Notes: a model not told the origin generated them from the sequence alone. 59,244 nt of DNA from Planctomyces sp. (GCA_043746695.1 JAYTQM010000830.1:1-59244); one strand, 5' to 3'. Shown: positions 16,246-50,388, counted from the first letter of the stretch. Made by a program: numbers and translations.

Positions 16246-16367
16246 GGTTTCTCCCAAGCTCTTTCTGACCGCAATACTGCGGATAATTTCCATTGACTCA
16301 AAAATCGCGAGGCCGAATTCGATAAGGAAACGCTTACGAATCGCGGCCCAATTTTTCTCGTCCCACA

Positions 16368-16426
16368 CTAGCCCGACGCGCAAGCGAGGGTTGTTCGCGG
16401 CACCCCTCGCTTGCGCGTCGGGCTAG
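16368..16426. repeat. CTAG-type hairpin family (family 5), intact copy
   Basis: CTAGCCCGACGCGCAAGCGAGGG, 13-nt loop, CCCTCGCTTGCGCGTCGGGCTAG: a perfect 23-bp stem. Lies inside the ABC operon spacer. Confidence 0.9.
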
Positions 16427-16454
16427 TTTGAAACGTCCAACCAGAATTTCTTCT

Positions 16455-37031: not shown

Positions 37032-38272
37032 CACTTCTCCCACGACCTCCGCAGCCATTCGGCAATGCGAGTCGTATGAAACGGCAACCATGCTCGCTTC
37101 GTGTAGATGCCGTGTCCCAATTTTTCTGTTTCATCAACGCCGTAATCGAACAACCACGCAGCATCACCATCCGCGTGGATGCGCGATCCACAGTCCAGTC
37201 GAGCGAGCAGAATTGAAAGTTCTGGCAGCCGATTTTGAAGACTGGCCCTGATCGGTTGCGGCAGTCGGTCCAAGGGCGAGTTGTCGTTCGTGACTTGCGG
37301 AATGTCCAACCCGATCTCCAAAAGCTGACCCACGACATGATCCGCCTCACGCCGCCGCCGATCGACTGGAGTCAGTTCGCTGCCAGCAATCCCAAACGAC
37401 TGTACCCAATCGCCAAACTTTGCTCCCACGATCTCATCCAGAGATTGCGGCAGCGCTGGTTTCGCGATGAATTCTGCCAAGTTCGCTGCGGGGCGGTGAT
37501 GAACGATGTGCAATAACCTCGAATAACCGTCGCAGTCCCAGCCGTAGCCGACGGGAGTCCCCATCGTCACCAGACAAAGCGCTTTCGCCAGTGGATGCGG
37601 AGCTGTTGCCGCAGCCAGTCTGCTGCGAGCAAGTTCCCAATTCGTTGCCGACTCCGTCCTACCGCTTGTCGCCAGGAAGAACTGCTCGACCGACTCACGA
37701 TCGTTTGCCAACAGATTGCTCAACAACGCGAAGACGTTTCCTGCGTGGCTGTGCCCCCAAAGCAAGACTCGTTCTTGCGTCAGATCAATCGGCAAATCAG
37801 CCAATCGATTAAAGAGGTCAACTGCCGCCTCTGCTCGCGAGATGTGATCGTTCCCGCTCGACCAATCAAACCGTTCGACGTGAGGCCCATTCGATCCCAG
37901 GAATGTGCTCAGTTCGGCCAAGTAGTCATCGAGAAAACTTCCGGTTTCCCCCATCAATCGGCCACTCAACTGCTGGTTGACGCTGCGCAGGATTCGCCCC
38001 CAAGACTCCGTTGCGAACGCCTTGAAGGCTGGCTGCAACAGTGACGGAATCGACTTCGTGACCTCTTCCAATTTCTGAGCAAACCCAAAGGGATCGTTTC
38101 CCACGAACGTACCATGCACCAAAAGGAGATGTCGCACCTTCAATTGGCGAAGCGTCTCACCGGCGTCAATGCTTGCGATTTGGTTCGATCGAACGGCAGT
38201 CACGGTCGTCGGAATCGGTGGCAAGCCCCAAGCGACATACGGTTGATGCCGAAAACGATTTTGACGTGGCAT
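37031..38272 (-). CDS. hypothetical alpha/beta-hydrolase-like protein (GHSHAG nucleophile-elbow motif)
   Basis: LLLVHGTF.. followed by VLLWGHSHAGNV (a GxSxG motif). I cannot place it in a named family. Confidence 0.6.
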   Translation of the reverse strand: MPRQNRFRHQPYVAWGLPPIPTTVTAVRSNQIASIDAGETLRQLKVRHLLLVHGTFVGNDPFGFAQKLEEVTKSIPSLLQPAFKAFATESWGRILRSVNQQLSGRLMGETGSFLDDYLAELSTFLGSNGPHVERFDWSSGNDHISRAEAAVDLFNRLADLPIDLTQERVLLWGHSHAGNVFALLSNLLANDRESVEQFFLATSGRTESATNWELARSRLAAATAPHPLAKALCLVTMGTPVGYGWDCDGYSRLLHIVHHRPAANLAEFIAKPALPQSLDEIVGAKFGDWVQSFGIAGSELTPVDRRRREADHVVGQLLEIGLDIPQVTNDNSPLDRLPQPIRASLQNRLPELSILLARLDCGSRIHADGDAAWLFDYGVDETEKLGHGIYTKRAWLPFHTTRIAEWLRRSWEK

Positions 38273-38528
38273 GACACAAAGCCTCCAAGATTTCAGTGCA
38301 TCTGCGGTTCGTGTACCCGTCCGCTTTGCTCGAATAGCGTGATCTGCCACAACATCGCAACTCTACTTTCCGTTGTCTCGCAGTCCCAGCAAGGAAACTC
38401 ACTCGCGCACCCAGGCCACTGGTTTTGCACACTTCAGTGCCAAGTGACACAATTCGAGCCTGCCTGGATTTTTCATGAGTTGTGGGAGATTTCACCGCAG
38501 GCTGTTTCACACTTGCCCGACGCGCAAG

Positions 38529-38760
38529 TTTTGAAGTTGTGCGTTTTGACTTTTCCCCGAAGGGGGCTTGGAAATTAGCCCAGGGCAAGTGAGCGAAAGC
38601 GAGCGCCGCCCTGGGAAATAACGCCCGTTGGTCGTGTGCCCTGAAGGGGCACGACATCCATGGTCCTGTTTCCCTGGGGCGGCGCTCCCGTTGGTCGCTT
38701 GCCCCAGGCTGATTTCCGAGGCCCCTTCGGGGCGAAGACACTAAAACCCGCAACTTCAAA
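38529..38760. mobile_element. 232-bp MITE-like long palindrome inserted into a family-5 hairpin
   Basis: The termini TTTTGAAGTTG / CAACTTCAAA are inverted, and the ~90-nt arms are about 80% complementary. It is flanked by the direct repeats ACGCGCAAG (38520-38528) and ACGCGCCAG (38761-38769). Confidence 0.75.
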
Positions 38761-38816
38761 ACGCGCCAGCGAGGGAAGTCCGCCATCGTCCCTCGCTGGC
38801 GCGTCGGGCTAGTGTG
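38761..38816. repeat. CTAG-type hairpin family (family 5), copy split by the MITE (left end at 38503-38528)
   Basis: Deleting 38529-38760 plus one 9-bp repeat restores CTTGCCCGACGCGCCAGCGAGGG, 14-nt loop, CCCTCGCTGGCGCGTCGGGCTAG (22/23 bp paired). Confidence 0.8.
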
Positions 38817-38910
38817 TGCCTTGAATAATCTCGGCTAACGACAAGTTTGGTCTGCCGACGTCCAATGGGTGTTGGTTCAATTGCAGTGCGAAACAATGGG
38901 AAGAGTGACT

Positions 38911-40497
38911 ATGCACAATCGAGAACTGACACCGGGCGCGATGCGTGCATTGGACGGCGCTGGGAGGCTCGCGTGGATGGCGGGGCGTTCGGAAGTGGAA
39001 ACATCGCACTTGTTGTGGTCTCTTGTGTTGGATGAATCGCGAGCGGCGCTGTTGCTGCAACACGCGATGATTCGAGCCGAGATGCTGGACGCGGTCTTTC
39101 CGTTTCTTGGAAACCAGCAAGCGTCTCTTGAAAAATCCTCAGACCAAACGCCGTTCGCGATTTCTTATGAACCACCGCCGGTCCCGATGCCGCTGAGTCC
39201 GGCAGTGTCAGCCGTTTTGGTCGAAGCTCGCACGATTCTGGCACGGTTGGGGTTGGAACCGGAAGTCGGTAGTGAGCACTTGCTGGCAGCACTCGCGGTT
39301 GTGGACGTTTCGATCGGAGAGTTCTTCGGGCGGTTTGGGCTGGGGCCTGCTGGACTGGCTCAGAAGGTGGCCGAGACGGCCGGCTTCGTGACTGAGCCGA
39401 TCACTCCGGAGTTCAACATTCGCTGGAGTGAACCAACCGTGGCCGATCACACCGACACGTTACGAACGCTCGACGCAGCAGCGAATCGTTGTCGGGAAGG
39501 ACTGCGCGTCGTCGAAGACTTCGTCCGTTTTTCATTGGATGACGCGCACCTTTCACGACTGCTCAAAGAACTGCGGCACGAGTTGACCGAACGCCTCAGC
39601 GACCTCGATCGGCTCGGTCTAATTTCCGCTCGTGACACGCTGGGCGATGTCGGCACACGGATCAAAACCTCGCGAGAACAAACCCGACAACGTCCGTCCG
39701 ACATCGTGCTCGCCAACTGCCGCCGTGTGGCCGAGGCGCTCCGAACATTGGAAGAGTTTTCTAAATTCGTGATCACGAAACTCGCGGATCCGACACTGCC
39801 GTCACGTCTCGAACAAATGCGGTATCGGCTCTACACGATTGAGAAAGCGTTACTCACGACGCTCTCGTCGCGTGATCGGCTGGAAGGTTGCGATCTCTAT
39901 TTGCTGGCGACCGAAGCATTGTGCCATCACGGCATCGGCCCGGCTGTGCGACAAGCGTTGGAAGCGGGAGTTGGGATCGTGCAACTTCGCGAAAAAGACT
40001 TGACCGATCGTCGCACTTTGGAGCTGGCACATCGCGTGCGAGAGTGGACTCGCGAGGCCAGCGCACTCTTCATCATGAATGACCGAGCGGACCTTGCCGT
40101 CTTGTCTGATGCCGATGGCGTGCATGTCGGACAAGAAGAGCTGACGGTTCGCGAGGCTCGTCGCATTGTGGGAGCAAATCGGCTTGTCGGCGTTTCGACA
40201 CACACGGTTGAGCAAGCTCGACAAGCGGTGCTCGACGGAGCGGATTACATCGGCGTCGGCCCGGTGTTTTCGACGACCACAAAGTCGTTCAACCAGCTCG
40301 CGGGCCTGGAGTTCGTCCAACAAGTGGCGACAGAAATCAAACTTCCGTGGTTCGCGATCGGTGGCATCACGCTGGAAAACATTTCCGCTGTGAAGACCGC
40401 TGGCGCAACTCAAGTCGCCGCCAGCAGCGCAATCTGCTCATCGCCAAATCCTGGCCGAACGGCGGCTGAGCTATTGGACCGAGTGCGAATGCCTTGA
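38911..40497 (+). CDS. thiE: thiamine-phosphate synthase with N-terminal Clp_N-like repeats and a helical middle domain
   Basis: The C-terminal 210 aa form a classical ThiE (VQLREKD.., NDR.DLA..ADGVHVGQ, GVSTH, GVGPVF.T.TK, FAIGGI). The N-terminus has two Clp R-domain-like repeats (ETSHLLWSLVLDE, GSEHLLAALAV). The start could be 38869, 38896 or 38911. Confidence 0.85.
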   Translation: MHNRELTPGAMRALDGAGRLAWMAGRSEVETSHLLWSLVLDESRAALLLQHAMIRAEMLDAVFPFLGNQQASLEKSSDQTPFAISYEPPPVPMPLSPAVSAVLVEARTILARLGLEPEVGSEHLLAALAVVDVSIGEFFGRFGLGPAGLAQKVAETAGFVTEPITPEFNIRWSEPTVADHTDTLRTLDAAANRCREGLRVVEDFVRFSLDDAHLSRLLKELRHELTERLSDLDRLGLISARDTLGDVGTRIKTSREQTRQRPSDIVLANCRRVAEALRTLEEFSKFVITKLADPTLPSRLEQMRYRLYTIEKALLTTLSSRDRLEGCDLYLLATEALCHHGIGPAVRQALEAGVGIVQLREKDLTDRRTLELAHRVREWTREASALFIMNDRADLAVLSDADGVHVGQEELTVREARRIVGANRLVGVSTHTVEQARQAVLDGADYIGVGPVFSTTTKSFNQLAGLEFVQQVATEIKLPWFAIGGITLENISAVKTAGATQVAASSAICSSPNPGRTAAELLDRVRMP

Positions 40498-49885: not shown

Positions 49886-50008
49886 CAGTGTCCTGAAGCG
49901 GCACTGTTCGACAAGCTCATGAACCTGTCTTCGTCATTCAGACGGACAACCAATCCCGTCTTGCCCAACCAGACTCTTCCTGTTTCACACGAACTCTCGA
50001 TCAAGCGA

Positions 50009-50120
50009 CCCCACCGAGCTTGCCTCGGTGGCTCGCGGGCTTTGGCACTACGGCAACCTTGATTTCGGATGAAACCACGTAGTGCAAAAGCCCAAATCCA
50101 CCGAGACAAGCTCGGTGGGG
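50009..50120. repeat. REPIN-like family 1, copy E (same orientation as copy B)
   Basis: CCCCACCGAGCTTGCCTCGGTGGCTCGCGGGCTTTGGCACTACG, 26 nt, CGTAGTGCAAAAGCCCAAATCCACCGAGACAAGCTCGGTGGGG. Family flanks extend it to about 49991-50142. Confidence 0.9.
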
Positions 50121-50388
50121 TTGATGGACCTCGCTTAATTGAGGGCTAGTGTGAAACGACAGTCCTCACTATCGACGCAGCTTCGCAGAGAACTGGGAAA
50201 AAGAGGCAGTTGCGTCAGGACCGCATTGCGCCACAGCCCCGTCAAAGCCCGAGAAGTTCGCCACGTTTCACCAAGCGGTCGATGAGCCGCACGAAGTCAC
50301 CGCATAGATTGCGATGCGCGATTTCTCGCTGAATACCGCCGGTTGATTTGACCAAGTGTGGCACGACGCTCCGAGTCGTGATTCTTTC

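Follow-up and report, generated by a model that had tools for sequence, protein, structure and literature searches.

A probable IS4-type MITE with a REPIN-type interior, inserted at a fixed position of a REP-like hairpin in a planctomycete genome

The window analyzed in this study, i.e. a whole stretch of 59,244 nucleotides from Planctomyces sp. (GCA_043746695.1, JAYTQM010000830.1:1-59244; genome G000), contains a palindromic element located in a 518-bp divergent intergenic region, between an upstream gene and a thiamine-synthesis gene. The element begins at position 38529 with TTTTGAAGTTG and ends with CAACTTCAAA(A), i.e. with CAACTTCAAAA up to position 38761. Its length is 232 or 233 bp, depending on whether the right end is placed at 38760 (9-bp duplication of the flanking sequence) or at 38761 (8-bp duplication). 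The two arms of the palindrome are 73-80% complementary, and the 233-bp sequence is predicted to form a very stable fold (-83.6 kcal/mol). The features of the element and of the interrupted host hairpin are presented in Table 1.

Table 1. Predicted features of the palindromic element, its host hairpin and the reference hairpin in the window.
Feature	Position	Strand	Remarks
206-aa ORF reading through the element, not a gene	38166-38786	-	no Pfam family
Host REP-like hairpin ('family 5'), outer left arm CACACTTGCCCGA	38508-38520	+	
Left copy of the target-site duplication, CGCGCAAG	38521-38528 (9-bp reading: 38520-38528)	+	same 8-mer target in the full-length IS of L153
MITE left terminus TTTTGAAGTTGTGCGTTTTGAC	38529-38550	+	14-nt core with 1 mismatch to the IS consensus TTTTGAAGTTGCGC
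Cargo, REPIN-type palindromic doublet	38551-38742	no strand	alignment to C634, C786, C782
Cargo hairpin modules	38555-38566 with 38721-38733; 38579-38615 with 38672-38708		
Single central REP hairpin of the cargo, GTGCCCTGAAGGGGCAC	38636-38652		
MITE right terminus AAAACCCGCAACTTCAAAA	38743-38761	+	
Right copy of the target-site duplication, CGCGCCAG	38762-38769	+	7 of 8 positions identical to the left copy
Rest of the host hairpin: inner left arm CGAGGG, loop of approximately 14 nt, full right arm CCCTCGCTGGCGCGTCGGGCTAGTGTG (38790-38816)	38770-38816	+	
Intact paralogous hairpin of the same family ('empty site' reference)	16363-16431	+	

The arrangement described in the first-pass annotation, i.e. 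a palindrome with inverted termini and repeated flanks, whose removal restores a hairpin, was reproduced in our re-examination of the window. The flanking sequences ACGCGCAAG (38520-38528) and ACGCGCCAG (38761-38769) are identical at 8 of 9 positions. When the element is taken out together with one flank copy, the remaining sequence forms the hairpin TGTTTCACACTTGCCCGACGCGCCAGCGAGGG-loop-CCCTCGCTGGCGCGTCGGGCTAGTGTG, with a calculated folding energy of -40.2 kcal/mol (DNA parameters), versus -38.8 kcal/mol for the intact paralogue (16358-16436). The direct flank repeat, originally read as a 9-bp duplication, is real, but its length is better described as 8 bp. With the termini taken as symmetric (TTTT...AAAA), the duplicated sequences are CGCGCAAG (38521-38528) and CGCGCCAG (38762-38769), and the ninth nucleotide, an A, may come from either the target or the element, since all hairpins have an A at target position -1 and the last base of the element is likewise an A. 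To judge from the symmetry of the ends, the duplication is most simply read as 8 bp in the MITEs and in the full-length ISs (see below) alike.

The 206-aa ORF that spans the element was already suspected to be spurious. It has no match in Pfam, and the region between approximately 38461 and 38836 is wholly absent from the closest relative (G002), in which the flanking genes are 92-93% identical; the ORF is therefore not a gene. A scan of positions 38300-39000 against Rfam produced only sub-threshold matches, of the kind that any long hairpin gives. The relation between the window copy and the intact hairpin had also been described as that of a textbook filled and empty site, with the suggestion that an empty site be sought in a related strain. 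No orthologous empty site was found in G002: at all eight comparable loci (window positions 38461-38836, C634, C262, C236, C825, C493, C878 and C770) this genome lacks the hairpin and the element together, and in the more distant congeners there is no synteny across the spacer. The empty/filled relationship therefore holds between paralogues, from which the insertion is deduced, and not between orthologous alleles. Comparison of G000 with G002 (approximately 92% gene identity) also showed that repeat-bearing intergenic blocks of 100-450 bp are swapped for short unrelated sequences. At this divergence such blocks turn over wholesale, and the two genomes do not differ merely by the presence or absence of individual elements.

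The family of the host hairpin is represented in G000 by 513 fuzzy arm matches, 178 exact arm cores and at least 136-144 intact hairpins. The arms, approximately 27 nt long, are separated by loops of approximately 14 or 46 nt and may be divided into subfamilies (GTAACCCGAAGCG..., CTAGCCCGACGCG... and CAAGCCCGACGCG...). The distribution of the hairpin in the phylum is patchy (7 of 151 evenly sampled genomes). The arm core CCCGAMGCGYNAGCGAGGG is kept in distant planctomycete families, namely in G168 (530 copies) and G126; in the latter, the cores are arranged in same-strand tandem runs with a spacing of approximately 74-104 bp. No enzyme mobilizing the hairpin was found among the Y1 genes of the genus or on the assembled IS contigs of G000. 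We rejected the possibility that it constitutes a REP of a Y1 transposase, since its arms bracket none of the 30 Y1 genes in the genus, and also that it is a MITE of IS66 or of another assembled IS, since no arms are present on those contigs. The window contains another disrupted hairpin of this family (49981-50158), in which a different palindromic repeat lies between the outermost flanks. This repeat is devoid of the terminal sequence TTTTGAAGTTGCGC, and the disruption therefore arose by another route.

The first-pass annotation had proposed a search for other copies of the 232-bp element, and this search revealed more than 20 loci (approximately 23) in G000, in size classes of approximately 271, 233, 150, 95 and 80 bp. 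Alignment to the copies on contigs C634, C786 and C782 showed that the window copy corresponds to the 271-bp form minus 38 bp at its centre. The same termini (TTTTGAAGTTGCGC, nn, TTTGAC) are also found around at least three unrelated classes of interior, and more interior types are present in the congeners. In total, approximately 80 loci of all classes with these termini were identified in G000, i.e. approximately 60 beyond the class of the element itself. Approximately 30 contig ends of G000 (e.g. C6:5658, C15:5632, C154:11815 and C850:97) carry an unrelated IS of high copy number, with the terminus GGCTCAACCGGCGATCCGGGGAGG. This IS lies behind many of the assembly breaks and is inserted in some of the MITEs (C154, C421, C850); there is no copy in the window. 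Its terminus was reached from two of the MITE termini.

Of 20 congeners, 17 have a match to the 232-bp element, compared with none of 20 genomes of other genera or families. The junction between the hairpin arm and the terminus (AG-TTTTGAAGTTGCGC, the hyphen marking the joint) is present in at least 118 stretches of the public genome collection. Approximately 68 of the 80 matches listed are from Planctomycetota (records of Pirellulales, Planctomycetales and Gemmatales), and the non-planctomycete matches among those listed are no more numerous than chance would give for a 16-mer. An even sample of 150 genomes of the phylum contained neither the junction nor any close homologue of the transposase described below. 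Occurrence in several orders, combined with absence from this sample, indicates that the system is scattered but rare overall.

The position of the element within the hairpin is fixed. Among 443 arm-plus-target sites of G000, 341 run on as a normal hairpin and approximately 35 switch to the terminus at the same nucleotide, while no other recurrent element ends at that nucleotide of the arm in these 443 sites. The exact 16-mer terminus/arm junction was found 13 times in G000, compared with 0 for a control with the pattern reversed; the junction pattern is far beyond chance. The target may be written as CCCGA-N8-CGAGGG or, in a fuller form, CCCGA-NGCG(T/C)NAG-CGAGGG. The outer arm of the hairpin adjoins 57 of 75 planctomycete termini, and within the genus all copies of the IS end adjoin hairpin arms. 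Most copies are thus placed at a fixed position in one REP family, the property that defines a REP-targeting IS.

Two configurations of the flanks were distinguished. In type A, the element is bordered by a direct duplication and the remainder of the hairpin lies beside it. Copies of this type were identified in G000 (C386, C825, C878, C68, C830, C898, C782 and C143), in congeners (L072, L033 and L089) and in other planctomycete genomes, where they comprise 20 of 33 bounded elements; 13 of these 20 have perfect 8/8 duplications, and the inner arm CGAGG follows the element in 18. Direct repeats accordingly flank other copies of the element, as they do in the window (at least 10 in G000 and the congeners, besides the 20 elsewhere). 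The duplicated 8-mer varies with the local variant of the hairpin (AGCGTGAG, AGCGTCAG, CGCGCAAG or TGCGTCAG), which identifies it as target DNA, as opposed to an att core borne by the element. Both full-length ISs with matching flanks (L149 and L153, see below) are of type A.

In type B, two outer hairpin arms adjoin the element, i.e. the flanks are inverted, and the centre of the hairpin is absent. This configuration was observed in G000 (C634, C786, C494, C927 and C684), in congeners (L031 and L038) and in six elements elsewhere. It accounts for approximately 7 of the 15 classifiable copies in G000 and the congeners and for 6 of 26 in the other genomes. Inverted flanks characterize about one third to two-fifths of the copies. 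Type B is not produced by one simple insertion. Possible routes include (i) insertions in both mirror-image sites, followed by recombination between the near-palindromic copies, (ii) an intramolecular reaction in which one end of the element attacks the mirror site, with deletion of the hairpin centre, and (iii) nuclease trimming of an asymmetric palindrome. A further rearrangement was noted in G000 (C420:4800-4845), where a 14-nt terminus stands alone, joined straight onto the right hairpin arm (...CTTGCGCGTTTTGAAGTTGCGCGTCGGGCTAG), apparently through deletion of the whole element via the GCGC common to the terminus and the target.

It had been suggested that a full-length IS with the same termini might be found, and three such elements were identified in hairpin arms: (i) L149, in a Mariniblastus MAG (1508 bp, duplication AGCGTGAG), (ii) L153, in a Schlesneria MAG (1506 bp, duplication CGCGCAAG, identical to the target site of the window) and (iii) L237, an intact element of 1506 bp in the congener G017 (C727:488-1993). 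They share the 14-bp terminal core TTTTGAAGTTGCGC, from which the window copy differs by one mismatch at each end. The flanks of L237 do not match, being arms of two different hairpin subfamilies (CTCACGCT, left; CTTGCGCG, right), which suggests either that two IS copies recombined or that the assembly is chimeric here. Within the genus, the IS is intact in G017, near-complete in G005, and present as fragments or pseudogenes in G011 and G004.

The transposases of L149 and L153 (455 and 484 aa, respectively) share 63% aa sequence identity. Both pass the Pfam model DDE_Tnp_1 (63 bits versus a cut-off of 23), and the match to DDE_5 is borderline. The Y-(2)-R-(3)-E-(6)-K motif is complete, and YSLRWQIELFFKELK is conserved across the homologues. 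Residues D128 and D230 show no variation, and 8 of the 9 sequences have E373, with the spacing D(101)D(142)E; their alignment and motif context point to these three as the probable catalytic residues. More than 2,600 homologues were identified, typically of 454 aa, mostly encoded on contigs of approximately 1.5-2 kb and almost all unnamed.

The first-pass annotation had named two candidate families, one of which was IS4, and the transposase is indeed of the IS4 type in its DDE_Tnp_1 domain, YREK motif and DDE spacing. Judged by the criteria published for the IS4 family proper, namely D(60-110)D(100-150)E, a complete YREK and a duplication of about one helical turn, 8-13 bp (PMC2266710), the IS belongs to this family, as its motif, its D(101)D(142)E spacing and the length of its duplication all agree with them. 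In size and duplication length the IS would be closest to the ISPepr1 subgroup, as judged from the published description of that subgroup and not from an alignment of its members. ISPepr1-type elements are likewise 1500-1600 bp long, with a single ORF, a complete YREK and a duplication of 7-8 bp (PMC2266710). However, their end consensus (YT-AA-YTT) fits the IS only with a 2-nt shift, and they prefer AT-rich targets, whereas the planctomycete IS uses a GC-rich hairpin arm. The best profile matches in NCBIfam were to IS701 (84-106 bits, cut-off 150), followed by IS4, all of them below the curated cut-offs. IS701 elements are strongly site-specific. They generate duplications of exactly 4 bp, and the Tyr of their YREK is mostly missing (PMC2266710); membership in IS701 was rejected on account of the 8-bp duplication and of the Tyr, which the planctomycete IS has.

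No match to either of these two IS4-type transposases was obtained in the G000 assembly (92% complete) by tblastn. Pairs of termini (up to 3 mismatches each) lying 600-4000 bp apart, with supporting extended repeats, were not detected in this genome, and none of its 21 assembled IS256, ISL3, IS4/IS5 or IS66 transposase loci has similar ends. Among approximately 40 termini of five congeners there is no interval that could accommodate a transposase gene, the exact pairs being separated by 147-290 bp; 20 seemingly unpaired termini in these five genomes all have degenerate partners 140-650 bp away.

The window element is a small multi-copy element without a transposase gene (233 bp, its only ORF being spurious), and its original description as a MITE-like palindrome holds in this respect. 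The palindromic interior, however, is not derived from the IS but is a separate REPIN-type repeat. The element thus differs from a classical deletion-type MITE, such as the genuine deletion derivative of the parent IS found at L239 (1069 bp). The nature of the interior was recognized in G010 (L078), where a gene for a 153-aa Y1 transposase is located between two complete copies of the interior (approximately 260 and 290 bp) in direct orientation, neither with TTTTGAAGTTGCGC termini. Inverted REP doublets are present on each side of the Y1 gene, in a REPtron-like arrangement. The Y1 protein passes the IS200 model NF033573 (NCBIfam IS200/IS605; 60.4 bits versus a cut-off of 55) and scores 20.7 bits with the RAYT model NF047646 (cut-off 80), which places it outside the RAYT clade.

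Doublets of both kinds coexist in G010, i.e. without termini in unique flanks (L093-L098) and with termini in hairpin arms (L089-L092). In G000 all non-truncated copies of the interior have termini, and the Y1 transposase of the cargo was not found in this genome, in which the nearest Y1 match is only 45% identical. The sequence just outside the Y1-associated doublets (L078) bears, by eye, a faint resemblance to the termini, so that the cargo and the termini may not be fully independent. An additional joint was observed in the cargo, where an element end, CAACGCCGTTAAGGATTTTT, is joined exactly at the tip of the GCCCTGAAGGGC hairpin; it recurs in G000 (C928:~13584, C804:~107, C853:~133 and C511:~6700), in L036 (G016) and in L039 (G007). 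This end may belong to a second REP-targeting element, possibly IS110-like, which would give four levels of nesting.

We consider it highly probable that the window element is a MITE of this IS4-family IS of approximately 1.5 kb, with a REPIN-type cargo inside and a fixed target in the arm of a REP-like hairpin. Transposase-mediated insertion, proposed on first inspection of the window, agrees with the termini, target and duplication shared by the window copy, its paralogues and the full-length ISs. In the mechanism that we propose, the DDE transposase would recognize the 14-bp terminal inverted repeats TTTTGAAGTTGCGC and integrate the element at one fixed position of the arm, with the staggered cuts being repaired to give the 8-bp duplication; by analogy with the IS4 family, the chemistry is presumably cut-and-paste. 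A REPIN-type doublet, by itself linked to an IS200-like Y1 (HUH) transposase, would have been captured between two IS ends, and the composite amplified as cargo by the DDE transposase, as suggested by copies that share terminus-interior junctions at different hairpins, each with its own duplication. Capture followed by amplification is the simplest history, and the window copy would later have lost 38 bp from its centre. This copy is expected to be immobile unless a transposase is supplied in trans and, as neither transposase was found in its genome (92% complete), it is probably a stranded relic.

A further, coupled reading is put forward tentatively, as somewhat more probably wrong than right: a Y1-dependent REPIN captured by IS4-type ends would have been spread by DDE mobilization, also into genomes such as G000 that are devoid of the REPIN's own Y1 enzyme, and type B copies would result from use of both mirror sites by the transposase. 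The mirror site may then be used by intramolecular attack or by insertion into the extruded stem, and not through later recombination.

Several other origins of the element were weighed against the IS4-type MITE. The whole 233-bp palindrome, termini included, might be a REPIN moved by a Y1 (RAYT-like) transposase, with the flank repeat being incidental. The REPtron-like bracketing of the Y1 gene by the interior in G010 speaks for this, as does the weak similarity to the termini just outside the G010 doublets. To our knowledge, however, Y1/HUH elements insert without target duplication, and duplications matching at 6-8 of 8 positions recur here in more than 30 independent copies. Moreover, the same termini bound unrelated interiors as well as a DDE transposase gene, and there are stand-alone doublets without the termini and without the hairpin context. 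This explanation is strongly disfavoured, and the probability that we assign to it is very small. Conservation of the palindrome as a functional structured RNA or as regulatory DNA of a divergent promoter region would be in keeping with its stable fold and its position in the 518-bp spacer. We regard this as most improbable, given that no Rfam family reaches threshold, that the whole block is missing upstream of these genes in G002 and that the copies occur in unrelated contexts.

The heavy nesting of repeats in G000, the secondary rearrangements evident from inverted flanks and central deletions, and the failure to find an orthologous empty site in G002 would all be expected if the locus were a static BIME-like mosaic, formed by recombination and replication slippage among palindromes without any transposase insertion. 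Such a process hardly explains a junction at the identical nucleotide of approximately 35 arms in G000 and in dozens of genomes from several orders, nor duplications that precisely copy the local target variant, and there is in addition an IS that shares these ends and this duplication; we therefore judge it very unlikely. Site-specific recombination by a tyrosine, serine or IS110-type enzyme, with the flank repeat as a shared att core, could account for the extreme target specificity, and elements of the IS110 type are known to target REPs (PMC1525189, PMC12288879). It is contradicted by the variable 8-mers, since both flank copies follow the local hairpin subfamily instead of forming a constant core. 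The elements also have perfect terminal inverted repeats, and the full-length copies have a gene for a DDE/YREK transposase but none for a recombinase, which makes this origin extremely improbable.

MITEs and mobile insertion cassettes, e.g. MIC231 of IS231, are short elements with the ends of an IS4-family IS that are moved in trans, and the interior of such cassettes need not derive from the IS. Compared with MIC231-type cassettes, the planctomycete element carries neither a gene nor an IS remnant but a mobile repeat of another class, a REPIN-type doublet. The insertion sites of IS1397 and ISKpn1 lie within or close to the loop of their targets, unlike that of the planctomycete IS, which is in the arm of the stem. 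These two elements (IS3) and ISPpu9, ISPpu10, ISPa11 and IS621 (IS110) all insert site-specifically in REP palindromes (PMC1525189, PMC12288879), and REP targeting by IS110-type elements is still under study (PMC12288879); they differ from the planctomycete IS in enzyme family and chemistry.

REP palindromes are targets of ISs from five families, including IS4 (PMC1525189). The closest parallel by description is ISRm22 of Sinorhizobium meliloti, an IS4-family element with essentially all its copies in REPs (Tobes & Pareja 2006, PMC1525189) that has been assigned to the IS4Sa subgroup (De Palmenaer et al. 2008, PMC2266710). Both systems involve an IS4-family DDE transposase and sites in REP-type sequences that are palindromic and GC-flanked; the phylum, the termini and the REP are different, and the comparison is one of descriptions and not of sequences. 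Of the accounts of ISRm22 (PMC1525189, PMC2266710), that of De Palmenaer et al. reports no MITE or cargo-bearing derivatives. REPIN-RAYT and REPtron systems are also well described (Bertels & Rainey 2011, PMC3116915; Nunvar et al. 2010, PMC2817692; Di Nocera et al. 2013, PMC3733652). The cargo resembles these in being a doublet of inverted REP hairpins, with copies on both sides of the Y1 gene in G010. It differs in that (i) the Y1 protein is recognized by the IS200 model but not by the RAYT model, (ii) the doublet is larger (approximately 260 bp, with three hairpin modules per arm) and (iii) in G000 it occurs only inside the DDE-type MITE.

Targeting of REPs by the IS4 family is already known from ISRm22; the novelty here lies in this IS itself, in the planctomycete hairpin that it targets and in a DDE-type MITE that carries a REPIN as its cargo. 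These elements provide a defined and testable system, comprised of an abundant unnamed IS4-type IS with exact 14-bp ends, a target precise to a single nucleotide and a set of MITEs with swappable interiors on common termini. In the annotation of planctomycete genomes, ORFs such as 38166-38786 should be masked, and many contig breaks in planctomycete MAGs are explained by such repeats. The three-level nesting, i.e. a hairpin that contains a DDE-type MITE that in turn contains a REPIN, is a clean natural example of a REPIN carried by a different class of transposase. If cross-mobilization proves true, it would bear on the persistence of REPINs after the loss of RAYT.
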